Under the pieces are notes generated by a model. That model saw only the letters and a program-made list of their open reading frames with translations, ran no database searches and had not been told where the DNA came from. From Candidatus Cloacimonadales bacterium (GTDB taxonomy: Bacteria; Cloacimonadota; Cloacimonadia; Cloacimonadales; JAIOQZ01): a stretch of DNA of 64,000 nt. Location of the stretch: contig CAXXTU010000002.1 of assembly GCA_963662655.2 (NCBI GenBank), forward strand, positions 2,688,001-2,752,000, in the 5' to 3' direction. A program made the translations under genes and the position numbers. This document shows, in pieces, positions 12,001-23,221 of the stretch. Numbering within the stretch: the first letter of the stretch is position 1; every line of letters begins with the position of its first letter.

Positions 12001-12982
12001 AATCATCAAGGCGATCGGAACCATGCAGCTTCGGGAAAGCATTCCGATATTGCACAAGTTTGTCATGAGCACATCGTCGAAGATCAAAATCGGGCTTGCA
12101 AAAGCGCTTGGGGACATATACGGGGATCAATCGACCAAGATGTTACAGGTTCTTTCCAAGGATGGCGACGAATATGTGCGGGTTGCGGCCGATATAGCCC
12201 TGCAAAAGGTGAACAAGGGCATCGAGCTCGATCCGGTGGATACCTACGAGCTGTTCAACTCGATCTTCAAAAAAACGGACTGGCGTTTCTCGGATTCCTG
12301 GTTCGATAAATTGCTGCATCAGTTCGTGGATCCGTACAGCCACCACGAGCCGATTCCGTTGCGCGATTTTGCCGAGAAGATCATCATGAACGAAGACGAA
12401 CTTGAAGAGAAACGGAACGAACTCGATCAGAAGCTTTCGGAGAAACTTATCAGAAGTACGGATGTCGAGAGGATTATGGAGGCGAAGCAGGATACGCAGT
12501 TGAAGAAGAATCGGTTGATCTCTCGAGAGCAACTGGTTTTATCCATTCTGAAGCTGGATCCGGACGACATGAACCTGAAAGACTGGAATATCTTGAGTCA
12601 AGCGCTGCAATCCAATGATGAGGACATCATTCGGGCGATTGTGTTTTCGTCGGTGAAATCGACGGACCCGAAATGGTTCAGCATTCTTCAGGACGTCATG
12701 GATCGCATCGATTACAGCAGCCTGGTCGACCTGATGATTTACTCGGTGTTCCAGAAACGCTGTGCGAAGAGCCTGCCTATTCTCATCAGACTCTTCAAGC
12801 ATGAGAGAGCCCGGTATTATACGCTGTTCTTCGTGAATCATTATATTCTGAACCCGGGTGATCTCGAGCTATCTGACCTGAAGGAGTGCAAAGAAGCGCT
12901 TGCAACGCTTACGGATATCCCCAAGGAAATGCATAATTCCATCAAAGGACTCTTAAACTATCTTATTGAAAAGAAAATGTAA
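9062..12982 (+). CDS. Large HEAT-repeat alpha-solenoid protein (1306 aa)
   Basis: Repeated HEAT-like units (DDDYNVAVNAAIAL, SNYMVRKQIASSL, DGDEYVRVAADIAL). Confidence 0.7.
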   Translation: MLNNFKWMMAKNDPDKLEQLYVGSKSLREQIIERLFELEDYKRLIQLAQKDPTQRNHILQKIMDLTQLDLNDVEYIMTFANIGFVQKTIIPYMVRNFKEKDLIRLAKKPKIDRIIRRNLLKRLGIDPDNPNAPRKVKEDYLKLRMLLEEADLDEIVENSREEISLEQQSSEMDRLKHYLSIRKNISAEEDYKLIKQEMLFWVSQERFNLSFILSLINLSRLSAHDKLKLIREINSDELLYPENFQLITDSYDIPFETFQTFFSETTVNEWVKTFLQTHFVIDLIYLYQYYEEFHWLEKYLKTIGIIQKTSLSGINESYYLTSKYGYRLNEIIPQEDIRQQLIESCLPIQKEIMDNLHVDSFPISNLLKPLLMVGGEENFSFFAALMNRRVVNDPAQTILDIEQNYLELKRRINTQKEMEELVLNEKAEKEGLISDDKYHVISNMYFEKLTSSMELHPNVRDAILNNLPDLKKYSAIATMNGKVRLCKFISMLNLDQYEEMLLEYVKDDDYNVAVNAAIALKSLENESVGKLLQEFSKSSNYMVRKQIASSLKIISENIDEDLILKLAQDENLEVCQEAIQTITLLPIDTAVDYLSRIIPAAYYKNRPYIARALSQLHTVKVLPLLAELIREGDAEEYFAVIKALPSIFNPLSIQFLKTLNTQRRPILEVESAKSLILMGDPSGWQTLEFFSDFSQNNVRNYARLCFLELCSGENLSLLRELSFDSTSLIAVMAAGKLIQYNEDEGWETVERILNTNQIDTTFMLVQLMIHLPFDKVSRYLGDIYKRDDYGSKTLAALIFAQNGRTNYLQKIENEILNLDQYAHRRIIDALKVFPNDLSLSIVRKIALLQDIDLLDDLLGLLSSYSIERAMQLINLLWRKADWVSKVPVARVLGKLRHAKIIEFIHKHRGNTTPEVKSEFAYALIMQGDESGWIMFDELLEETNTRTAKSPINAIARVKSTKALRLLEKQLSNPNEALQSEIIKAIGTMQLRESIPILHKFVMSTSSKIKIGLAKALGDIYGDQSTKMLQVLSKDGDEYVRVAADIALQKVNKGIELDPVDTYELFNSIFKKTDWRFSDSWFDKLLHQFVDPYSHHEPIPLRDFAEKIIMNEDELEEKRNELDQKLSEKLIRSTDVERIMEAKQDTQLKKNRLISREQLVLSILKLDPDDMNLKDWNILSQALQSNDEDIIRAIVFSSVKSTDPKWFSILQDVMDRIDYSSLVDLMIYSVFQKRCAKSLPILIRLFKHERARYYTLFFVNHYILNPGDLELSDLKECKEALATLTDIPKEMHNSIKGLLNYLIEKKM

Positions 12983-12999
12983 ACTACAAGGGACTTGCA

Positions 13000-13791
13000 A
13001 TGAAACCGACGATACTGATTCTCATTCTGTTCTCCATTCTGTCATTTTCGGGAATGGAGCTGGCTATTTCCGATTCCGGGCAAGGATATTATGTGTCGGG
13101 CACACCGTCCGAGACGTGGTTCATTACCGGGGCAGGCAATCAGATTACGATTTACGGATCCGATTTTCAGGAGATCCAAACGTTCTCCACCGGCGCTCAT
13201 AATCCCTATTACATCTATGCAGCCGGACGGGATTTCGACGATGACAACAACATCGAGGTACTTTACTCCGTTTATAATACAACAACCTACACGATGTCGA
13301 TCTACCTGCGCGATACCGTCACCGGCGATATCCAGCTCAGCCATGTGGGGAATCAGAGCACGAGTTACTACGGGTACTCCTATTACGCGTACAACGAGCG
13401 CTTCCTTCTGGTCAATCGCATGATCGATAACGAGTACGATCACTGCTACGTATATCGATCCGGGATTCAAGTGGATCTGGATGAGGGAGATACTCCTGTT
13501 CGGAACGCGTTCGACATCTATCCCAATCCATTTATTCCAACGACTTCTCAGAGTGATTTATCGGTAGCCTTTTCACTGGCCCAACCTCAAACCGTAAGCA
13601 TCGAGATATTCAACATCCGGGGACAGCGAGTCAAAGAGATCGCTTCCAGGATACGCCTGGCAGAGGGTGACCATCAATTGCGCTGGGATGGAAGGGATTC
13701 ATCGGGAAAACCCGTCGCGACGGGAACATATATCTTCTACGTTCATCAAGGCAATGAGAAGTTGGTAAAGAAGAATTTGTTAATACGGTAG
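13000..13791 (+). CDS. Secreted protein with FlgD-Ig/T9SS-type C-terminal domain
   Basis: Signal peptide; YPNPF...IFNIRGQRVK...WDGRD..GKPVATGTY tail. Confidence 0.8.
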   Translation: MKPTILILILFSILSFSGMELAISDSGQGYYVSGTPSETWFITGAGNQITIYGSDFQEIQTFSTGAHNPYYIYAAGRDFDDDNNIEVLYSVYNTTTYTMSIYLRDTVTGDIQLSHVGNQSTSYYGYSYYAYNERFLLVNRMIDNEYDHCYVYRSGIQVDLDEGDTPVRNAFDIYPNPFIPTTSQSDLSVAFSLAQPQTVSIEIFNIRGQRVKEIASRIRLAEGDHQLRWDGRDSSGKPVATGTYIFYVHQGNEKLVKKNLLIR

Positions 13792-13799
13792 AGCCATTT

Positions 13800-13928
13800 G
13801 TATACCGGTGTGGCATCTTCGTCCATTCATCCGCAACGCCGTGGATATAACACGATCCTGACACTATCGAACAATCATAATGGATCGTGTAACACCACGT
13901 CTTCACGGAGAATGGCGCGAATCTGCTC
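13800..13928 (-). ncRNA. Unidentified structured element, copy A
   Basis: Shares four invariant blocks and stem architecture with 20791-20920. Confidence 0.55.
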
Positions 13929-13945
13929 CCACCTCGCATATTCTG

Positions 13946-14929
13946 TTATTCATCAATGACATTCACCGGGATCATCATTTTCATGCCGCTATTACGATAG
14001 TATTTTATAGCACCCGGATGGATTGGAGCTGAAAGCGCATGGAACATTTCTTCTCTTTTCAGGGTCATCAACGCGGGATGAATCGCACAGAAGGCATCGA
14101 AGTTATCGAAGATACACGCCGTGAGTTGTTCGACTGTTTTTACCGGCACATCCGCTCTTGTCACGAGGGTAGCCCGAACGCCGATGCTCTCGATATCTTC
14201 TGTATTGAGCAATCCGGGATAAAGAATAGCCGGAATGGTGGCTCGTGAGTAGTAGGGGAAATCCATCAGCAATTTTTCGGCATCGTAGCCAATAATAGGA
14301 ATAAAGCGCAAGCTGTTTTCGAGGGTCATTTTTTTCATAAGGTCGTTGGGGTGACCGATCGTATAGAAGAAGGCATCCAGATTGCCTTTCGCCATTTCCT
14401 CGGAGGCTTGCATCGGACTGAGGTAGGATGGCGCGATGTCATCCAGCTCGAATCCGATAATCCCCAGGACATCCACAGCGTTCTGGTGCTGGCCTGATCC
14501 AGGCTCGCCAAGACTGATCCGCTTGTCCGAGAGATCGTAGACGGTCTGGATACCACTTGCTTCCGAGGCGATGAGGGTAATGGTTTCGGGATAGAGCGAG
14601 CAGATCGATCGCAGGTGTGACTGCCGTCCGTCGTTCCACCAGTCCTCGAGACCGTAGAACGCCTGGTACTGGCGATCGGACTGGACGATTCCAAAGGTGA
14701 ATTCCCCGGCGACAATCCGGTTCACATTCTCCACAGAACCTTCACTCGAAACCGGTTCCAGCATCAAAGTTGTCTTCGCATCCAGAGCCAGCTTTTCCAG
14801 GCCTTTTCCTACCTGATAATAGACGCCGGTCTCGCATCCTGTACCAATTTTGTTCGGTTTGACATCCGCATTACATGCAATCAGTAGAAGAAGAGATAAA
14901 AGTATGAAAAAGAATAAGCTGTTTCTCAT
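13946..14929 (-). CDS. TAXI-family TRAP transporter solute-binding lipoprotein
   Basis: LIAC lipobox; GTG..TGVYY, GSVEN, QSD, GEPGSG, PIHPGA.KYY motifs. Confidence 0.9.
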   Translation of the reverse strand: MRNSLFFFILLSLLLLIACNADVKPNKIGTGCETGVYYQVGKGLEKLALDAKTTLMLEPVSSEGSVENVNRIVAGEFTFGIVQSDRQYQAFYGLEDWWNDGRQSHLRSICSLYPETITLIASEASGIQTVYDLSDKRISLGEPGSGQHQNAVDVLGIIGFELDDIAPSYLSPMQASEEMAKGNLDAFFYTIGHPNDLMKKMTLENSLRFIPIIGYDAEKLLMDFPYYSRATIPAILYPGLLNTEDIESIGVRATLVTRADVPVKTVEQLTACIFDNFDAFCAIHPALMTLKREEMFHALSAPIHPGAIKYYRNSGMKMMIPVNVIDE

Positions 14930-15831
14930 TATTTCTCCTTTGGAGCGTTCGTGATTTCCCGAAGTAATACTTTAGAATCTTCCTTTATTTTTTCAGGTAC
15001 GTTTTCTTGCTTCAGTAGATGCGTTATAACTTCCGCGGCACGGGAAGGCCATCCGTTTTCCCGGAAGAACAAGGCATTCATGAGCTGAATATCCGGGAAA
15101 GGATAATCGTTTCCAACCTGCTCGACGATGCTCAAAGCAAGCTCGCGTTGTCCGGTTTCGATCAGGAACCCGGCGTAGTCATAGCCGAGCGAGAAATCGT
15201 AATCGGCGTAGCTGATCCCGCTCTCGAACCAGCTTTGCGCCTTGACGAGACAATCCTCCATGCTGCGGGTATCCCCTTCATCCTGTGCCGCTCTCCAGTA
15301 TGCCAGCGCAATCGTCCGGCATGTGAGGCTGCGAGGCTCAACGTGATTCTGCGTGTATTCATCCCGCTCCGCAACATTTCGGGTCTCAACCCGCATCGGG
15401 TCATAGTCCAACTCTCCATCAGAGAGAAACACGTGGTGGCGGGTGGCGGAGAAATCCAGGAGCTTTCCCGTCGCGAAGAAAACCGCATCGAGGAACATGG
15501 TGGAAAGCGTACTGCAATCTAGCGAGCTCTGCCAGAGGTCTCTAGAAAGCAAGTCGGCCCGTCTTGCAGAGGAATAACGATCTTCGAGCGCAGAGCAAAA
15601 CCTGAAAAAGAACGATCGTAGCGGCTGAGGTTCGTTACCGTCATACAGCCTGGCCAGCTTCGTGATTTCGGTTTGATATTGAGACTTTATCGAATCCGGC
15701 GAGGCGTTTACATAGCGCTCTTGCAATCCCTGACATTCAAGTTCGATCATCTGTTCGCCCAAGAGCGTCACCGAATGACATACGCTTCCGCAGGCAAGCA
15801 GTAGTAGCAGGAGAATCGTGCGGAGAATCAT
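14929..15831 (-). CDS. Hypothetical exported protein (transglutaminase-like LDC..H motif, helical C-terminus)
   Basis: Signal peptide; co-oriented and abutting neighbours; LDCSTLS and HVFL motifs. Confidence 0.5.
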   Translation of the reverse strand: MILRTILLLLLLACGSVCHSVTLLGEQMIELECQGLQERYVNASPDSIKSQYQTEITKLARLYDGNEPQPLRSFFFRFCSALEDRYSSARRADLLSRDLWQSSLDCSTLSTMFLDAVFFATGKLLDFSATRHHVFLSDGELDYDPMRVETRNVAERDEYTQNHVEPRSLTCRTIALAYWRAAQDEGDTRSMEDCLVKAQSWFESGISYADYDFSLGYDYAGFLIETGQRELALSIVEQVGNDYPFPDIQLMNALFFRENGWPSRAAEVITHLLKQENVPEKIKEDSKVLLREITNAPKEK

Positions 15832-15834
15832 CGC

Positions 15835-18723
15835 TTAGCGAAGAATCAGAACCTTCTTCGTCTGGCTTTGGCTCGGTGTTTCGAGACGCAGGAAATACAC
15901 GCCGCTGGAGATCACCTTGCCAGTCTCGTCCAGGCCATCCCAGTAAAGGCTGTGGACGCCGGCGTCGTAATTCCCTTGAGAGATTCTGGTCACAAGCTGT
16001 CCGCGGACGTTGTAGATCGCGGCTTCAATCTTCTCCGGCTTGGGAAGCGAGAAACTCACGGAAAGGCCGTCGGCAGCCTGCACGGGATTGGGGAACACCG
16101 TAAGCTGAATGGACGGTTGTTGGATCGTCTCGGTTTCTATGCTTACCTCTTCACCCAGATCGCTCAGCATCCGGTCGAAAAGCGATTCGACCATTTCCTT
16201 CTGCATGTAATAGAGCGGAAATCCGAAGAAGAACACCGTTCCGGAAGGCTGGTACTTCAACGCGCAAGGCAGACCTTCGTAATCGCTGCCTGCTTCGCTG
16301 TGGAAAGTATAAATGCCATCCTCTGCACCTTCGAACACACATACGTACGGCAGCATTCCGTTCCAGACGGAAAGAATTTTGTCCTGATCGAGCGTTTGAT
16401 TGGGGTAGTTGTCCGAGAGCGCTTGCGAGAACTCGGCGCTCGACGAGAACGATGCCTCCGTGATGTTCAGGAAAGTTGAGCGGAAGGACTCCGAGAGCTC
16501 TGTGGCCGTTTTCCATCCGGAGACGATCAGATTACCGCCTGCCAGCAGGTAACTCGTGAGAATATCTTCGTAATCGGATATTTTCTGTTGGGTGATATCG
16601 TCGTCATGCCAGATGATGGTGGAATAGTTACGTAGTTCGAGAATTTGTGGATCACCATCCGTATCGAGATCGTGCGAGGTGAAGAAATTATTGATCACGT
16701 CCGTGTAGAAATCATCGACCTGTGCATCGTCAGGATTGCCGGGTGTCCCGGAACCGTTGCGTGTCTCGTCGATCACCAGAACGCCCTGATCCATCGGGAA
16801 ATCGATTGGCGTTGCTTCCAGTGTTTGGGATGGAAGCGATTCGAAGCCGTCTTTTACAGCCGTGACATAGTAGTAGTAGGTCTGGCCGTTACTTACATTC
16901 TCGTCGTTATAGATCGTACCTGTAGCAGGATCGTCGTTGAGGAGCGTAAATCCCTGATCCTCTTCTTCGGAACGATAAACGTTGTAGCCTTCCACCTCGG
17001 CAGCTTCCCAGAAGGGCTGCCAGTAAACGATCACCTCTCCATCCGTCGCGGAGGCGTTGAGCAGCGTCATCACCTGCTCCGTGTTCGAGCGGGAAATCAC
17101 CCAGTGATGGGGATCGAATTCGGCGGTGAAATCGCCGATACCCGTCAGATCGCTGACCTGCATCGCGGGGGCGTCGGGAGAACCGGTCACAAGAAGCGAA
17201 TCGTGGTGTTCTTCCCAGTTGACGTGGATGGGAACCTGAATATGGAAATCGGTACTGGTGTTGGAAACGGTTTGAACCATGGACATCATTTGCGGACTGT
17301 TTGAACCGATCCCCGCGAAGAAAAGCGCGTATTCGGTTGCCGGAAGACCGGGCGAGTATATCCACTGATCGAAGAATTGCCCCAGATCCAGCCCGGACTC
17401 CTGCTCCATGATCGCCCGAAGTTCCTCGGTTACGGCCCAACCGTTGCGGTAGGTCTGGAAATAGGTCTGCACCGCGTCGAAGAAATCATCGTCGCCCATG
17501 ATGAGCCGGAGCATGTGCAGAACGGATGCCGCTTTCTCGTAAACCGGCGGAGAGAATGTCTCGTTGTATGGCGGAGCGTAAATGGTCCGCGATCCATTCG
17601 AATTAGCCCAGTTGATATAGTAGCCGTGGATCGCTGAATCGACGTAGTTTGTCATTTCGTCGAATCCCTGCCAGTGCTCCATATATATCGCTTCCGAAAG
17701 GACAGCGAAGCCTTCGGAAAGCCACACGTGATCGAAGGTAAGCGGTGTGACGCAGTTACCGAACCACTGGTGGGAAAGCTCGTGGGCAATGGTGATCTCG
17801 CCGCCGTGATTTCCGTCGATGAAGCTGCTTCCCATGGTGGTCATGGTCTGGTGCTCCATCGCGCCGAATGTTTGCATGGGAACGATGGCATTTCCGTATT
17901 TCTCGAACGGGTATTCTCCGTACACACTTTCGTAAACTTCGATCATATAGGGGAGGTTGGAGAAATCCTCAAGGGCCTCGTCATACATGGTATTTACGGC
18001 AAAATTTTGAATTGGTAAATCGCCATAATTATCATCGATCTGAATGTAATAACCCGCAGTTATGCATGCAAGATGCCCAGCCATGGGCGAGGATCCCTCC
18101 CAATGGGTTGTATGAGTCCCGTCACCGTTGTTATCGATCCCGGTTCTGATGCCATTGCAAGCAATCACCCAATCATCGTGTTCCGTGATATGGAAATCGT
18201 ATATCGCTTTCTCCCAGGGGTGATCGTAGGCCGGCATCCACCAACGTACTCCGCTGGGGTCGGACAGTGTGAAGAAATAGTATTGGCTGAAGATCATTCC
18301 GATATGAAAAACGTCGTCGCTCAACTGCGGATAACCGAAATAGCTAATCTGCACGGTAAACTCATCACCGTTGGAGATATCCGATAGCGCGATGTCGATC
18401 TCGCCGTCTTCGTGCGTGAACGTCGTACTCTCGCCGTTGACCAGTATCTCATCGACCGTCAGCGCTTCCAGCTCAAAGGTGATTTCTTCAAGGTCCTCTT
18501 CCGCGAGGATAGTGGCAATCACGATGCCATCGATGTATTCCTCCATTTGATCGATGTCGATGGAAACATCGTATGAAAGTACATCGAATCCATGAAGTGA
18601 ATCGGCACGGGAATGAGCTTCTTCCAGAACTCGCCGGTACTCGCTCAGGTCCTGCGCCGGCCGGGCATATAATAATACAGTGCACAACAGCACTGAAAAC
18701 AGTATCAAACTTCTGCGCAGCAT
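15835..18723 (-). CDS. Secreted M1 aminopeptidase with FN3 and FlgD-Ig tail
   Basis: GAMEH and HELSH...WLSEGFA motifs; YEKAASVLHML; FPNP...WDG..SGVY tail. Confidence 0.9.
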   Translation of the reverse strand: MLRRSLILFSVLLCTVLLYARPAQDLSEYRRVLEEAHSRADSLHGFDVLSYDVSIDIDQMEEYIDGIVIATILAEEDLEEITFELEALTVDEILVNGESTTFTHEDGEIDIALSDISNGDEFTVQISYFGYPQLSDDVFHIGMIFSQYYFFTLSDPSGVRWWMPAYDHPWEKAIYDFHITEHDDWVIACNGIRTGIDNNGDGTHTTHWEGSSPMAGHLACITAGYYIQIDDNYGDLPIQNFAVNTMYDEALEDFSNLPYMIEVYESVYGEYPFEKYGNAIVPMQTFGAMEHQTMTTMGSSFIDGNHGGEITIAHELSHQWFGNCVTPLTFDHVWLSEGFAVLSEAIYMEHWQGFDEMTNYVDSAIHGYYINWANSNGSRTIYAPPYNETFSPPVYEKAASVLHMLRLIMGDDDFFDAVQTYFQTYRNGWAVTEELRAIMEQESGLDLGQFFDQWIYSPGLPATEYALFFAGIGSNSPQMMSMVQTVSNTSTDFHIQVPIHVNWEEHHDSLLVTGSPDAPAMQVSDLTGIGDFTAEFDPHHWVISRSNTEQVMTLLNASATDGEVIVYWQPFWEAAEVEGYNVYRSEEEDQGFTLLNDDPATGTIYNDENVSNGQTYYYYVTAVKDGFESLPSQTLEATPIDFPMDQGVLVIDETRNGSGTPGNPDDAQVDDFYTDVINNFFTSHDLDTDGDPQILELRNYSTIIWHDDDITQQKISDYEDILTSYLLAGGNLIVSGWKTATELSESFRSTFLNITEASFSSSAEFSQALSDNYPNQTLDQDKILSVWNGMLPYVCVFEGAEDGIYTFHSEAGSDYEGLPCALKYQPSGTVFFFGFPLYYMQKEMVESLFDRMLSDLGEEVSIETETIQQPSIQLTVFPNPVQAADGLSVSFSLPKPEKIEAAIYNVRGQLVTRISQGNYDAGVHSLYWDGLDETGKVISSGVYFLRLETPSQSQTKKVLILR

Positions 18724-18904
18724 TCGCTACCTCCAACAATCACAATGTGTTATCAACACAGCACTTCTGCATATGTCAAAGATTAGCGGACCGTAAAGGA
18801 TTGGCAAGTTTTTCTTTATGAGCAAAATACCGGAAAATGTGTGGACAAAGTATGTGCAACATGACAGGGATGAAACCGTTGAAAGAGTGAATCCTGGAGG
18901 AAGT

Positions 18905-20173
18905 ATGCAATTTGAATTACCGTACGGGGATTCGACTTTCCCCATGGAAATCGACGACCGGAACATACTCGACGTACTGGAAAACGCCGAACTGCCGTCT
19001 ATCGACCATCCCGAAGAAGCCGTTCTCAAAGCGCTGGAGCAGCCGACGGCCTCCATGTCGCTACGCGATCTTCTAACGGTAAAGCCCATTCAACGGCTGG
19101 CGATCGTCGTGACCGACCACACGCGCGGATGCCCGTACCCCACCATCCTTCCCCCGCTGATCGAATACATCATCGAAAGCGGAGTATCGCCGCAGTCGAT
19201 CGAGTTTCTCGTCGCGACCGGCACCCATCCGGCCATGACAATCGATCAGATGCGCAGGCAGTACGGCACTTCCGTTGTCGAAAGCTTTCCCTTTCACTGC
19301 AACGACTGCCGCAGCAAGGATATGGTCTACATGGGCGACCTGATCCATGGCAACCCATTCTACCTCAACAACCTCGCGGTGGATGCGGATTTCCTGATCA
19401 CCACCGGCGTGATCAACACCCACTATCTGGCAGGGTTCTCCGGTGGACGAAAGAGCATCCTGCCTGGGCTTTCCTCCTACGAAACCATCCGCAGGAACCA
19501 CAGCCAGGCGCTGGATCGAAGGGTCGATCTCGCCCGGCTGGACGATAATCCCATCCATCTGGAAATGAGCCAGGCAGCTTCAATGGCAAACGTCGATTTC
19601 AGCCTTAACTTCATCCTCGACGACCACAAGCAGATCGTTAAAATCGTCTCGGGGGATATCCACGAATCGTTCCTCGCGGGAGCGGAGTTCCTGAAGGAGC
19701 ATTACAGTGTCCCCTGCAACGGCCTTGCGGAAGTGATCATCACCACGCCCGGAGGTCATCCCAAGGACCGCACGCTGTATCACACGCAGAAGTGCATGAA
19801 CAACGTCTTTCCGCTCCTCGAGAAGGGCGGAACCGCGATCGTATTCAGTCCATGCAGCGACGGGGTAGGTTCGGACGAGATGGTCCGGTTCATGACCTCC
19901 GTCGAGAAACCCGAAGAGCTTCTTTCCATCGCACCGGAGGAGATCACCGTCGGCGGTCACCGCGCGGTTGCAACCGCGAAGCTCATGGAGAAGGGGGACA
20001 TCGTTCTGGTTTCGAAGATGCCGGGCGAGGAGGTGGAATCGCTGCATTTCAAAACTGCTCCGGACTGGAAAACGGCCTACCGCTTCATCAAAGGTAAGCA
20101 TGGCGACGACGTTAAAATACGAGTAATCCCCAACGGAAACCAGTTTTACGGTGTTCTGCGCGAGGAAACATGA
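18905..20173 (+). CDS. larA: Nickel-pincer-dependent lactate racemase family protein
   Basis: DHTR, ATGTH, HYLAGFSGGRKSILPG, GGHPKD motifs; GGAGG RBS. Confidence 0.85.
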   Translation: MQFELPYGDSTFPMEIDDRNILDVLENAELPSIDHPEEAVLKALEQPTASMSLRDLLTVKPIQRLAIVVTDHTRGCPYPTILPPLIEYIIESGVSPQSIEFLVATGTHPAMTIDQMRRQYGTSVVESFPFHCNDCRSKDMVYMGDLIHGNPFYLNNLAVDADFLITTGVINTHYLAGFSGGRKSILPGLSSYETIRRNHSQALDRRVDLARLDDNPIHLEMSQAASMANVDFSLNFILDDHKQIVKIVSGDIHESFLAGAEFLKEHYSVPCNGLAEVIITTPGGHPKDRTLYHTQKCMNNVFPLLEKGGTAIVFSPCSDGVGSDEMVRFMTSVEKPEELLSIAPEEITVGGHRAVATAKLMEKGDIVLVSKMPGEEVESLHFKTAPDWKTAYRFIKGKHGDDVKIRVIPNGNQFYGVLREET

Positions 20174-20784
20174 TTCGCAACATCCTACTTTCCCTGGAAT
20201 TCGTCGCACTGTTCATCCTTCTGCCCGTGCTCTCGTGGATGAATCTCTTCAAATTCCCGAAATTCTTCCTTTTGTTTGCAGCGCTGATCTACTGCATCTT
20301 CATGCTGCTCCGCTCCAGGAGCTTCGATCGCAAAAAGCTCTGGAACTGGAAGGGAATCCGCCCGATTCTGCTGAGAGTGGTCATGGTGTGCGTGTTTCTC
20401 ACGGCCTATACCGCGATCTTCGAGCGGGAGTCGCTGTTCTGGTTTCCAAGGCACAATCCGCTGTTTCTCCTGATCATCCTGGTCCTCTACCCCATCCTCT
20501 CCGCCTACCCGCAGGAGTTGATCTACCGCTCCTTCTTCTTCGACCGCTACAAGGATATCTTCGGCAGATTCGTGGATGTCTTCAGCATCCTGTCATTCAC
20601 CCTCTTGCATATCATCTACGACAACTGGGTGGCTCTGGCGTTTTCCTTCGCCGGAGGAATCCTCTTCACGAAAACCTACCGGAAAACGGGTTCCCTCGCT
20701 CTCACGGCCCTCGAGCACGCTATCTATGGGGGCCTGGTATTCACGCTGGGCCTTGGGAAGTTTTTCTACGAGCGCTGGGGGTAA
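20170..20784 (+). CDS. CPBP/Abi-family intramembrane glutamic endopeptidase
   Basis: QELIYR, FTLLH, EHAIYG motifs in a multi-TM protein. Confidence 0.8.
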   Translation: MIRNILLSLEFVALFILLPVLSWMNLFKFPKFFLLFAALIYCIFMLLRSRSFDRKKLWNWKGIRPILLRVVMVCVFLTAYTAIFERESLFWFPRHNPLFLLIILVLYPILSAYPQELIYRSFFFDRYKDIFGRFVDVFSILSFTLLHIIYDNWVALAFSFAGGILFTKTYRKTGSLALTALEHAIYGGLVFTLGLGKFFYERWG

Positions 20785-20790
20785 GTTCGA

Positions 20791-20920
20791 GAGCAGATTC
20801 GTTTGATCACCAACGAAAACGTGGTGTTACACGATGAAGTTGTTCCTTTTTCTCTCCAACGGAATCGTGTTATATCCACGTTGGAGGTGCGATCGGGCGA
20901 AGATGCCGAGAACGGTAAAC
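20791..20920 (+). ncRNA. Unidentified structured element, copy B
   Basis: See copy A; starts 6 nt after the CPBP stop codon. Confidence 0.55.
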
Positions 20921-21010
20921 GTACGATTGACCGTGACAATGACATATTCAACAAGAGCAGCTCCGCGAAGGTTCACGTAAGCTGCTCTCAGATGATAAAC
21001 AATTCGTTTC

Positions 21011-23221
21011 TTAAAGGATCAATCCATTTTCCCAGGCGTTGCGGAGGTCTACGGGATCGCAGGCAATCAGGTTATTGATGCTGAATCCCGATGCGGTTAC
21101 TTGGCCGATCTTACGCACTATGGTGCTGTGCTTTTCACAGATGGCCTGAATGGCCTGAACTTCTTCCGGCTTGCAGGAGACGACGATTCTGCTGTGCGCT
21201 TCGCCGAAGAGCTCGAAGTCGGCGCGGAATTGAAGCGGAAACTCGATGCTCGCGCCGAGGGTCATGTTGGCTGGCTGGAAGCACGATTCGGCAATCGCCA
21301 CGGCCAAACCGCCGTCGGAGCAGTCGTGCGCGGATTGGGCGAGTTTCCTGTCGGCGATTTCAAGGAAGACGTCGTAAAGCGCGCTTTCCTTGTCCAGATC
21401 GACCTTGGGGGCGTTGCCGGAAATGGTGCCATGAATCTCCTTGAGGTACTCGGATCCACCGATTTCGCTGCAGGGCTCGCCGAGGAGGAGAATGGCGTCG
21501 CCTTCATTCTTGAACCACGAAGTGACCTTCTTGCTGTTGTCTTCGATCAGACCCAACATACCGATGGTCGGCGTGGGGTAAACGGCCGCGCGCGGGTTCT
21601 CGTTGTAGAAGGATACGTTGCCGCCGGTGACGGGCGTATCGAATTTACGGCAGGCGTCTCCCATACCGCGGATGGCCTCGGTGAAGGTCCAGTAAACCTC
21701 CGGCTTGTAGGGATTGCCGAAGTTGAGGCAATTGGTGATGGCCAGCGGTTTCGCGCCGGAGCAAACCACGTTGCGCGCCGATTCGGCCACGGCTCCCTTG
21801 GCTCCCTCATACGGATCGAGGTAGACGTGGCGTCCGTTGCAATCGGTGCAGACGGCGATGGCTTTTTTCGTTCCCTGGATGCGAACGACAGCCGCGTCGC
21901 TTCCAGGCTCAACCATTGTGTTGACCTGCACCATGTGATCGTATTGCTGGAACACCGCCTTCTTGGAGGCGATGTTGGGTGTCCCCAGCAGCTTCTTGAG
22001 GACGGCGGTGTAATCGTTCGGCTCGGGAACGGATTGCGTGTCGAACGCGCGCATTTCCCGAAGGTAGGCCGGTTCTTTGATCTCGCGCTTGTAGACGGGC
22101 GCTTCCCCGCCGAGTACCAGCATCTGAGCGGGTAACTCGGCTTTCAGCACGCCGTTTTCAAGGATGCGCAGCTTGCCGTCGTCACGGACTTCGCCGATTT
22201 TCTCCGCGTGGAGGTCCCATTTGACGAAAATCGCTTCCACCTTCTCGTAGTTCTCGGGCTTCACCACTAGCAGCATGCGTTCCTGCGATTCGGAAAGCAT
22301 GATTTCGTAAGGTGTCATACCGGTTTCGCGTTGGGGAACCTTGCTTACGTCGAGCTCGATGCCCATGTTTTCCTTGGCTGCCATCTCGCTGCTGGAGCAG
22401 GTGAGTCCGGCGGCGCCCATGTCCTGGATACCCACGACAAGCCCGTTTTCGATCACCTCCAGCGTTGCTTCGAGGAGCAGCTTCTCCATGAAGGGATCGC
22501 CCACTTGGACGGCAGTGCGCTTCTCCTCCGATTCCTCGGTGAGTTCCACCGATGCGAAGGTCGCGCCGTGGATGCCGTCACGCCCGGTTTTGGAACCGAC
22601 GTAGATGACCCAGTTGCCCACGCCTTTCGCGGCGGCCTTGGCGATGTTCCCATGCTCGAGGAGCCCTACGGCCATCGCGTTGACCAGCGGATTACCCTCG
22701 TAGCTCTTCTCGAAATAGACTTCCCCACCAACGGTCGGAACGCCGAAGCAGTTACCGTAATCCGCGATGCCGGAGACCACGCCGTTGATCAGGTGTTTGA
22801 CCTGCGGCGACTCGGGGTCTCCGAAGCGGAGGGAATTTAGCGCTGCGATGGGGCGTGCGCCCATGGTGAAGATGTCACGCAGGATTCCGCCGACGCCTGT
22901 GGCGGCTCCGTGATAAGGCTCAACCGCGGAAGGATGGTTGTGGCTCTCGATCTTGAAGGAGATGGCCAGGCCGTCACCAATATCGACTACACCCGCGTTT
23001 TCTTCGCCGGTTTTTGTCAGGAGCGATTTCCCTTCGCGCGGGAGGGTCTTGAGCTGGAGAATGGAATTCTTGTAGCTGGCGTGCTCCGACCACATCACGG
23101 AGATGATGCCGAGTTCGGTAAAGGTGGGTTCCCTGCCGAGCGTCTCAAGAACGTGGTTGTATTCTTCCTCCGTGAGACCGTGTTCGGCGATGAGTTCCTT
23201 GGTTATCTTGGGTTCTTGCAT
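21011..23221 (-). CDS. purL: Phosphoribosylformylglycinamidine synthase large subunit
   Basis: [36 protein letters not shown]. Confidence 0.97.

Follow-up and report, generated by a model that had tools for sequence, protein, structure and literature searches.

The window analyzed here, a 64,000-nt stretch of the genome designated G000, contains two copies (A and B) of a structured element in opposite orientations, each just behind the stop codon of a gene, and raises the question of whether these are RNA signals of the neighboring operons or copies of a DNA repeat. Both copies were found where the original prediction had placed them, from 13928 to 13800 on the minus strand and at 20791..20920 on the plus strand, and they have GAGCAGATTCG, ACGTGGTGTTACACGAT, ATCGTGTTATATCCACG, CGAAGATGCC, and CGGTAWAC in common at the predicted spacings (Table 1). 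The predicted coordinates were correct, but the units are slightly longer (~13796–13935 and ~20785–20922) when the family profile and close copy pairs are used to set their boundaries. Each of the 17-mer blocks occurs twice in the window at ≤3 mismatches, while the shuffled sequences led to an expectation of 0.09 and 0.11. The spacers of A and B differ but still pair, as had been proposed; this was confirmed by the folding energies, since the predicted strand of A had a minimum free energy of −55.3 kcal/mol (z −4.6) and that of B one of −48.5 kcal/mol (z −3.4), versus −45.7 and −36.2 kcal/mol for the respective opposite strands. The covariance model R1 gave 125.3 bits on copy A, which carries an apical module of the TTCGATAGT type, and 140.9 bits on copy B, which carries the GGAG...CGGAAUC type and has its nearest neighbor, with 93% identity, in the copy at G000:C2:2619199.

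Table 1. Coordinates of the two repeat copies, their conserved parts, and the adjacent genes in the window
Feature	Position	Strand	Remarks
Copy A, whole repeat unit	13796..13935	−	5′ GAG, P1 stem, conserved scaffold, apical module, 3′ CGGT and short tail
Copy A, block GAGCAGATTCG	13918..13928	−	5′ half of base stem with tandem G·A
Copy A, block ACGTGGTGTTACACGAT	13884..13900	−	inner conserved stems and internal loop, 5′ side
Copy A, block ATCGTGTTATATCCACG	13840..13856	−	inner conserved stems and internal loop, 3′ side
Copy A, 3′ region	13800..13821	−	CGAAGATGCC (13812–13821), P1 3′ arm, CGGTATAC (13800–13807)
Copy B, whole repeat unit	20785..20922	+	P1 begins immediately past the CPBP stop codon
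Copy B, block GAGCAGATTCG	20791..20801	+	
Copy B, block ACGTGGTGTTACACGAT	20819..20835	+	
Copy B, block ATCGTGTTATATCCACG	20864..20880	+	
Copy B, 3′ region	20898..20920	+	CGAAGATGCC (20898–20907), P1 3′ arm, CGGTAAAC (20913–20920)
TAXI-type (NMT1_3) solute-binding protein gene	13946–14929	−	stop and 5′ end of A 17 nt apart; A in sense
Gene of protein with T9SS-type C-terminal domain (FlgD_ig, weak Por_Secre_tail)	13000–13791	+	convergent on A; A antisense
Rce1-like/CPBP protease gene	20170–20784	+	stop 6 nt ahead of the GAGCAG block of B
PurL-like (AIRS/AIRS_C) gene	21011–23221	−	convergent on B; stop 90 nt from the 3′ end of B

The distances from the TAXI and CPBP stop codons were as predicted and the copies do lie 3′ of these genes; however, each of them is also located just past the stop of a convergent gene. 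Copy A is 8 nt from the gene of the T9SS-type protein, whose ortholog in the congener G002 is accompanied by a copy in the identical relative orientation. The region from 12500 to 20885 is colinear within one assembled contig, and the inverted bracketing of a 7-kb block by A and B, to which the prediction had drawn attention, is unremarkable because the family has a density of about one copy per 27 kb. The count of two copies holds for the window only: nhmmer detected 142 non-overlapping copies in this genome, 137 on the chromosome and five on the 136-kb second contig, and the covariance-model search gave 124 matches among the 150 scored of 1164 candidates. All of the ~142 copies are intergenic, with a unit length of ~135 nt, and they are evenly spread at equal density on both replicons. 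Most copies are single, a minority have a neighbor within 5 kb, and both strands are used; seven tail-to-tail doublets with gaps of 10–49 nt comprise 14 of the 142 copies, all in the order "+ then −". The identity to the nearest neighbor has a median of 84% and a maximum of 95%, and no two copies are identical.

All three congeners searched carried the repeat, and it was detected in none of 57 further genomes from the family and order; in a second search two of two congeners had it and 148 further genomes from the phylum gave no match. As far as the searched genomes go, the repeat is thus restricted to this genus. Searches in phages, plasmids, viral contigs, and metagenomes gave no match, and neither did blastn (word size 11) when all 5,426 complete E. 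coli genomes were queried with one typical copy. In agreement with the proposal that no known family is involved, Rfam gave no match at the gathering score in the window; in E-value mode four copies yielded only chance hits below threshold (the best scored 27 bits, where the gathering score is 65), and three long variants had no match at E ≤ 1. A literature search found no paper describing the family.

The unit ends with GAG...CGGT and consists of a variable outer stem P1, a base stem that is conserved and has tandem G·A and two U·G pairs, a variable stem, and conserved inner stems around an internal loop, topped by an exchangeable apical module of 30 to ~90 nt or more. Stems and apical modules vary freely among the copies, three wobble pairs are nearly invariant, and conservation between the species was also seen in loop sequences, for example UCGAUAGU / CCGGUAGU. 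At orthologous copies the invariant blocks are kept, while the flanking intergenic DNA is unalignable. The compensation of the stems, anticipated from A and B, proved to be far beyond chance: in 54 copies from four species 96.2% of the cells were paired versus 83.4% after shuffling, 28 of 37 pairs had changed on both sides, and none of 500 shuffles came up to this; slid controls gave 27–47%. Such covariation counts also take in changes that were inherited and may include exchanges of entire stem segments. A separate run of MAFFT and RNAalifold on 49 copies reproduced this fold, and here 29 of 39 pairs had double changes. Close pairs of copies contained 24 compensated double changes, and their single changes to G·U (22) were not clearly above those to A·C (15). 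In the alignment, G·U prevailed over A·C in the wobble cells by 230 to 13 (72 to 12 if majority-G·U pairs are excluded), therefore the strand chosen in the original prediction is the folding strand. This was also indicated by the energies, as with RNA parameters the sense strand was the more stable one in 131 of 133 copies, irrespective of gene or replication context, with a gap of −14 kcal/mol. With DNA parameters the gap shrinks to −3.6 kcal/mol, and the sense strand has the higher stability in 125 of 133 copies, so the wobble and G·A pattern suits RNA at least equally well.

The sense-oriented association with operon 3′-ends, as seen at A and B, is not general. A co-oriented gene ends at the 5′ side of only 72 of 133 copies and the 5′ side of ~61 copies faces a gene start, while the 3′ side faces the end of an opposing gene in 100 of 133; where the neighboring genes are in tandem, antisense copies (51) outnumber sense copies (22). 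For about half of the copies, the distance to a stop codon is no more than ~35–45 nt. The orientation tracks replication, not transcription. On the chromosome, whose GC-skew minimum coincides with dnaA, the folding strand has the sequence of the lagging strand, that is, it lies on the template of the leading strand, in 102 of 137 copies (p = 9e-9), the other orientation accounting for 26%. Transcription is symmetric between convergent genes, and there the copies are split 41:17 by replication. The same direction was found in two congeners, at 24 of 24 copies among the matches listed for G001 and at 29 of 35 among those listed for contig C4 of G003. The minority-orientation copies form weaker hairpins (−63.5 vs. 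−71.5 kcal/mol, p = 6e-4), and at one orthologous site the minority-orientation copy of G000 is degenerate.

Considering that only one strand folds well and that three species share the replication direction, the repeat is therefore better explained as a DNA hairpin than as an RNA signal of its neighbors, and the best reading is a new REPIN/ERIC-like structured family acting as single-stranded DNA by a mechanism that we infer. We give an about even chance to the statement that this ~135-nt genus-restricted repeat acts and persists as a replication-tied ssDNA hairpin rather than as a 3′-UTR RNA module of the neighboring operons. It is possible, if rather unlikely, that the repeat DNA is only the gene of a structured RNA, which would be either a small RNA that every copy produces or a cis hairpin that stabilizes, processes, or terminates mRNA as ERIC/REP do. 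The nearly invariant wobbles, the tandem G·A, and the G·U excess point in this direction, as do the fourfold larger stability gap with RNA than with DNA parameters, the cross-species conservation of the loops, and the closeness of half of the copies to stop codons; for ERIC, an orientation-dependent effect on mRNA stability is reported in PMC2229807. However, the limited share of co-oriented upstream gene ends and the antisense majority in tandem contexts argue against it, and so do the lack of a conserved promoter candidate upstream of the 5′ GAG, the hairpin without a following U-run, and a sense asymmetry that is equal in copies able and unable to be read through in sense. Such an RNA would also leave unexplained why the orientation follows replication in three species, even between convergent genes.

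The polarity in three species, the even spread, and the blocks retained at orthologous copies amid unalignable flanks would suit a double-stranded DNA site that the host has recruited, e.g., to bind a nucleoid, topoisomerase, or replication/segregation factor, and whose polarity would be KOPS/Chi-like and its hairpin incidental. We consider this improbable, since it leaves the compensated stems and the preference of G·U over A·C without a reason, the apical modules and stems are freely variable, and the polarity (74–100%) is weaker in G000 than that of known polar motifs. Even less probable is an old inactive MITE, a deletion derivative of a DDE-type IS with decayed target duplications, whose palindrome would stem from long terminal inverted repeats. 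The outer arms are indeed complementary like terminal inverted repeats, but so is nearly the whole unit, and although the many intergenic copies and their equal density on both replicons speak for a MITE and the absence of identical copies fits an old burst, decay at 84% neighbor identity should have abolished the pairing, which is kept in 96% of the cells with 24 compensated doubles. Direct repeats of 2–8 nt flanking the 68 full-length copies did not exceed the shuffled expectation, and the 16 closest pairs showed no target duplication beyond the limits of their homology. The whole of G000 contained neither a partial copy flanking an ORF nor a gene-bearing split copy, its only split copies having non-coding inserts of 166 and 275 nt. 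The replication-strand bias is not explained by neutral decay either.

If the repeat acts as a DNA hairpin, it would be important as single-stranded DNA at the replication fork. By one route, modeled on a proposal for the attC sites of sedentary integrons, copies with the stable strand on the lagging-strand template would be preferentially lost or left to decay; by another, a putative enzyme would insert or maintain the element strand-specifically. The conserved loops may be the recognition sites of a putative factor, and copies near stop codons would form 3′-UTR hairpins in mRNA as a side effect, in either orientation. No enzyme or protein partner was found for the repeat. We regard as doubtful the more specific version in which the loops of a new single-strand-folding element are the substrate of a putative recombinase or maintenance enzyme of a non-Y1/HUH, non-DDE kind, which would act at the fork, keep the folding strand on the leading-strand template, exchange apical modules, and flip copies in place.

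Out of the three options originally offered (a 3′-UTR module, a ribozyme-like RNA, or a REP-like unit), the last comes closest, yet the unit is ~135 nt long and G000 lacks a Y1 transposase. The repeat resembles REP/REPIN-RAYT systems in being an intergenic palindrome of high copy number without target duplication, with one-strand hairpin recognition, and in its seven inverted doublets; it differs by its size, its GAG...CGGT ends, and its multi-stem scaffold with swappable apical modules. According to PMC3733652, REPs are 20–40 bp long and carry a GTAG or CGTC tag. Membership of the REP/REPIN-RAYT systems was not supported, as the repeat has no such tag, G000 (98.95% complete) gave no match to the Y1 transposase profile PF01797 while positive controls matched, and the Y1-like genes of congeners are not flanked by the repeat. 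G001–G003 have 2–7 PF01797 matches each, and model R2 with filters off detected no copy within ~2.5 kb of eight such genes; a hairpin beside an IS200-like tnpA in G001 scored 19.5 bits on both strands and lacked the conserved blocks. The ends of IS200/IS605 elements, PATEs, and omega/reRNA scaffolds also combine the absence of target duplication with one-strand hairpins and replication-coupled orientation, but in the IS608-type paradigm, as presented in PMC5027513 and PMC6006769, the active strand is on the lagging-strand template. The folding strand of the repeat is on the other one, thus a simple model of IS200/IS605-like insertion fails; besides TnpA, TnpB (PF07282) was also without a match in G000, where positive controls matched.

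With ERIC/IRU (127 bp) the repeat shares its approximate size, a long stem-loop built from an imperfect palindrome, an intergenic position near genes, length variants arising from internal insertions, and the lack of a known transposase. A replication-strand polarity is not known to have been reported for ERIC. The two differ in that the E. coli genomes showed no sequence similarity and the repeat has no TSD, while Table 1 of PMC2229807 lists ERIC with TIR, TSD, and terminal TA. The same table gives defined TIRs with TSD for the Correia/NEMIS, RUP, and BOX MITEs, which are likewise intergenic, ~100–200 bp long, and numerous, with transcripts able to fold as long stem-loops; the repeat differs from them by lacking TSD, a parent IS, and near-identical copies, and by its strong compensated evolution. 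The attC sites are similar in conserving structure above sequence, in one-strand folding, in conserved unpaired features, and in a variable terminal structure. By-eye comparison revealed no attC R″/R′ core motifs at the ends of the repeat. Its copies are single and genome-wide, with both gene orientations, in contrast to a one-way cassette array beside an integrase. The folding strand of attC is on the template of the leading strand in 25 of 30 sedentary chromosomal integrons (PMC5371416), and that of the repeat is placed likewise.

Interspersed palindromic repeats are common in bacteria, but few of them have a known mechanism, namely REP/RAYT and the DDE MITEs. The present repeat fits neither, as it combines a large multi-stem scaffold, conserved loops, compensated evolution, and exchangeable apical modules with the absence of TSD and of a recognizable transposase, and with a three-species replication polarity opposite to that of IS200/IS605. 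In practice, the family causes breaks in short-read assemblies of the uncultured lineage, and it should be masked before small RNAs or 3′-UTR motifs are called. The polarity may be made by a putative enzyme; if it reflects selection against hairpins on the lagging-strand template, the logic proposed for integron attC sites would be extended to a genome-wide repeat.

The two hairpin repeats of the window, copy A and copy B, had the positions and sequences assigned to them in the original prediction, and the five blocks common to both lay at the claimed spacings. Both 17-mer blocks occur exactly twice each in the 64 kb at up to three mismatches (expected numbers 0.09 and 0.11). On the strand that had been chosen for folding (5′ GAG to 3′ CGGT), the predicted structures reached −55.3 kcal/mol (z −4.6) for A and −48.5 kcal/mol (z −3.4) for B, while the opposite strand gave −45.7 and −36.2 kcal/mol. 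The distances from the upstream stop codons to the 5′-ends were also as predicted, and both copies are flanked by convergent gene pairs, a point absent from the prediction. A 300-aa ORF (14929–15831, minus strand), with the TAXI gene on one side and an M1 peptidase gene with a T9SS tail on the other, had no Pfam match at E ≤ 0.001. Copy B and the stop of purL have a separate hairpin with a 9-bp stem (AGAGCAGCT...AGCTGCTCT, found by eye) between them, at 20930–21005 on the plus strand; no T-run was seen by eye, and the hairpin may be a 3′-end structure of purL.

Positions in the window of copies A and B and of the genes next to them
Feature	Position	Strand	Remark
Copy A	13928→13800	minus	blocks match the predicted coordinates
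Copy B	20791..20920	plus	blocks match the predicted coordinates
NMT1_3 (TAXI) binding protein gene			5′ neighbour of copy A; stop codon 17 nt from its 5′-end
Rce1-like (CPBP) protease gene			5′ neighbour of copy B; stop codon 6 nt from its 5′-end
Gene with T9SS-type tail	13000–13791	plus	converges on copy A; stop 8 nt from it
PurL gene	21011–23221	minus	converges on copy B; stop 90 nt from it

The count of two copies proved true of the window only, as the genome to which it belongs (G000) carries about 142. An exact search with both central blocks recovered four copies, a covariance model made from these gave 124 matches among 150 candidates scored (of 1,164), and iterated nhmmer over the whole genome yielded 147 matches, that is, 142 non-overlapping copies, 133 of which are near full length. 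They are spread at equal density, approximately one per 27 kb, over the 3.68-Mb chromosome (137 copies) and the 136-kb second contig (5 copies). The unit is about 130 nt long in about 110 copies, and about 30 have a longer apical part (150–227 nt). Among the genomes searched, the family is restricted to the genus: all three other species (G001, G002, and G003) carry tens of copies each, while none was found in 57 further genomes from the family and order or, with a broader model made from 54 copies of the four species, in 148 other genomes of the phylum. Neither Rfam nor blastn searches of plasmids, phages, and the full set of complete E. coli genomes gave a match, and a gapped 23-base pattern of the repeat matched nothing in IMG/VR viral contigs or JGI metagenome contigs. 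Scanning genome contigs (596 Gb) with a single conserved 17-mer returned at least 86 single matches in unrelated phyla, which is uninformative because about 70 are expected by chance. A full-text literature search found nothing on inverted repeats or intergenic hairpins of Cloacimonadota, and a broader one gave general papers on repeats only.

The family folds on one defined strand, and the fold is kept up by compensated change. The unit starts with 5′-GAG, followed by an outer stem P1 of 5–6 bp, which is freely variable and fully compensated, and by an invariant base stem, GCA-GA-UUCG/CGAA-GA-UGC, containing tandem G.A pairs. Then come two U.G pairs with CGAUC/GAUCG, a variable stem, an internal loop, and the conserved inner part CGUGG-UGUU-N-CAC/GUG-N′-UAUAU-CCACG, in which N pairs with N′; a further variable stem with an apical module closes the hairpin, and the 3′-end is -CGGU with a weakly conserved tail. 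The conserved blocks and compensated stems originally reported for two copies withstood a covariation test on 54 copies from four species, where 96.2% of cells were paired versus 83.4% with partners shuffled, sliding the partners lowered pairing to 27–47%, and 28 of 37 pairs had changed on both sides, a count that takes in inherited changes and possible segment swaps; none of 500 shuffles reached any of the measures. Since this alignment had been fitted to the model, 49 copies were also tested with MAFFT and RNAalifold; the fold was the same, and 29 of its 39 pairs had changed on both sides. G.U cells outnumbered A.C cells by 230 to 13, and by 72 to 12 once majority-G.U pairs were left out. 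With RNA parameters the strand originally picked was the more stable in 131 of the 133 near-full copies, by about 14 kcal/mol, and with DNA parameters in 125 of 133, by only 3.6 kcal/mol. This asymmetry did not differ between gene contexts or between the two replication orientations, thus it is the product of neither local transcription nor strand-biased deamination. Deamination as the source of the G.U excess predicts unequal counts, while the leading and lagging means were 5.4 and 5.2.

The polarity of the repeat is set by replication in three species. The cumulative GC skew of G000 is lowest at 2.765 Mb, at dnaA (2,766,490), and highest at 0.805 Mb. The folding strand was the lagging-strand sequence, and so lies within the leading-strand template, in 102 of the 137 chromosomal copies (p = 9 × 10⁻⁹). 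As the bias was kept between convergent genes (41:17, p = 0.002), gene orientation is not its cause; only 56% of the genes lie on the leading strand. In G001, with dnaA at 1.66 Mb and positive sampled GC skew between 1.5 and 3.5 Mb, the same rule held in 24 of 24 copies, and on contig C4 of G003, where the skew switches near 1.95 Mb, in 29 of 35, both counts being made among the matches listed, which are the best ones. Minority-orientation copies form weaker hairpins (−63.5 vs. −71.5 kcal/mol, units ≤135 nt, p = 6 × 10⁻⁴). The window itself, ending at C2:2752000 of the chromosome, adjoins the replication origin on the replichore with the minus strand leading, about 14 kb to the left of dnaA (G000:C2:2766490–2766972) and the skew minimum.

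The location "in sense, 3′ of an operon" read from A and B is not a family property, since relative to the nearest 3′-end the antisense orientation was commoner than the sense one. By our rough gene call, of 146 matches, counted before four double-counted ones were removed, 60 had convergent neighbours, 51 were antisense and 22 in sense to tandem genes, and 13 had divergent neighbours; in tandem genes of G000 the antisense preference is separate from the replication bias and weaker (Fisher p = 0.03). Convergent regions make up 323 of the 2,742 intergenic regions of the genome, and the excess of copies there was marked (chi-square p = 9 × 10⁻²⁴). A gene end faces the 5′ side in 72 and the 3′ side in 100 of the 133 near-full copies, at median distances of 35.5 and 45 nt, respectively. 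No copy fell inside a gene in G000 according to our rough call of hexamer-scored ORFs, and the family profile revealed no conserved sequence upstream of the 5′ GAG.

Orthologous copies were found for some members. In G002 the ortholog of the T9SS-tail gene converging on A carries a copy in the same relative orientation, with intact blocks and changed stems, which is probably the ortholog of copy A. For copy B, the orthologous flanks in the three congeners contained no copy, and the closest relative of B is another G000 copy with 93% identity. A different orthologous locus shows a conserved scaffold and a compensated P1 within intergenic DNA that can hardly be aligned, and its apical module in G000 is of another type than in G002 and G003. 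When 39 copies were split by a parser, our reading of the resulting table gave 10 of 16 combinations of N–N′ pair and apical type, which is consistent with copies swapping their inner parts. G000 and G001 carry oppositely oriented copies at one orthologous intergenic site, and that of G000, in the minority orientation, is degenerate. Twenty-two independent close pairs differed at 6.9% of stem sites versus 19.9% of unpaired positions. Double changes that compensate each other numbered 24 among them, and the 22 single changes to G.U were not clearly above the 15 to A.C.

Copies A and B do flank a 7-kb block as an inverted pair, as the original prediction had it, with their 5′-ends pointing inwards, but such a pairing is unremarkable because 34 neighbouring copy pairs lie within 5 kb in G000. 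When contigs from three DNA runs were compared with the window, one from a public run was colinear over 12500–20885, and contig breaks fell within copy B, as a repeat would lead one to expect. No contig joint pointed to an inversion or to an empty site, rare forms being able to escape contigs. The A–B region is rearranged among the four species, and so are most operon boundaries. Copies were considered as synteny breakpoints and this was rejected as not above background: only 3 of 14 congener copies with both flanks mapped were colinear in G000, but in a control on 720 kb of G001 and G003 colinearity was likewise limited to 33 of 73 mapped gene junctions at least 100 nt wide, and to 3 of 12 convergent ones. 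Consequently, no special role in rearrangement is claimed for the repeat. The wider junctions indicate that the genus is heavily rearranged at operon boundaries; tandem junctions with gaps below 100 nt in the G001 and G003 samples (stretches L164–L199) were colinear with G000 in 99 of 105 cases, presumed operons thus keeping their order.

The family lacks the hallmarks of DDE MITEs, REP/RAYT, and IS200/IS605 elements. The ends of the unit are defined by homology only, which in the 16 closest pairs runs from GAG to CGG(T) between unrelated flanks, and direct repeats of 2–8 nt flanking the unit were not above chance. No copies are identical (nearest-neighbour identity median 84%, maximum 95%). 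No split copy holds a gene; two hold non-coding inserts of 166 and 275 nt, the former unrelated and placed in the apical loop (C2:1053823–1054091). In the other split copy (G000:C2:1736702–1737096) an apical two-hairpin unit of about 66 nt is amplified about four times in tandem. All seven tail-to-tail doublets of G000 share one arrangement. The sole presence/absence case, locus L053 against G000:3479376–3479452, involves intergenic DNA too diverged to align. Neither a Y1 transposase nor TnpB was found in G000; Y1-like genes occur in the congeners, with no copy near any of the eight examined. One Y1/RAYT-like gene of G001 (L156:1790–3900; 209 aa, HVH and RDYWDRF motifs) has another, short repeat flanking it, whose translation in several frames yields AKLGLGAPNDVLLG/CQAGAWRSK strings again and again; gene and repeat are likely a true REP–RAYT pair, which G000 lacks. 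Kinship with the IS200-like element of G001 was rejected, as the hairpin beside its tnpA scored 19.5 bits on both strands and lacked the conserved blocks. A retro-element was also dismissed, as the sole RT-like ORF of G000 and the copy closest to it are 3 kb apart and nothing was seen to connect them. This ORF (L200:2610–3800; G000:C2:981109–982299), the only RVT_1 match in the genome, has a YRDD motif and one in-frame TGA and may encode a reverse transcriptase of the defence type that is either broken or recoded.

The main alternative is that the repeat acts as RNA, and the wobble and G.A pattern of its stems does suit RNA better than DNA; moreover, an orientation-dependent action on mRNA stability is reported for ERIC (PMC2229807). 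The gene-orientation statistics, the lack of anything promoter-like, and the polarity of the copies relative to replication all speak against an RNA role, which we consider the less likely reading.

We infer instead that the hairpin matters as single-stranded DNA at the replication fork, where the stable strand would be kept off the lagging-strand template. The instability of asymmetric palindromes depends on orientation, as described in the older literature. IS608-type elements use the lagging-strand template (PMC5027513, PMC6006769), a polarity opposite to that of the repeat. If the hairpin does matter as single-stranded DNA, the polarity of the family could be reached by two routes: copies in the other orientation would be lost or decay, or a putative factor would insert or maintain copies strand-specifically.
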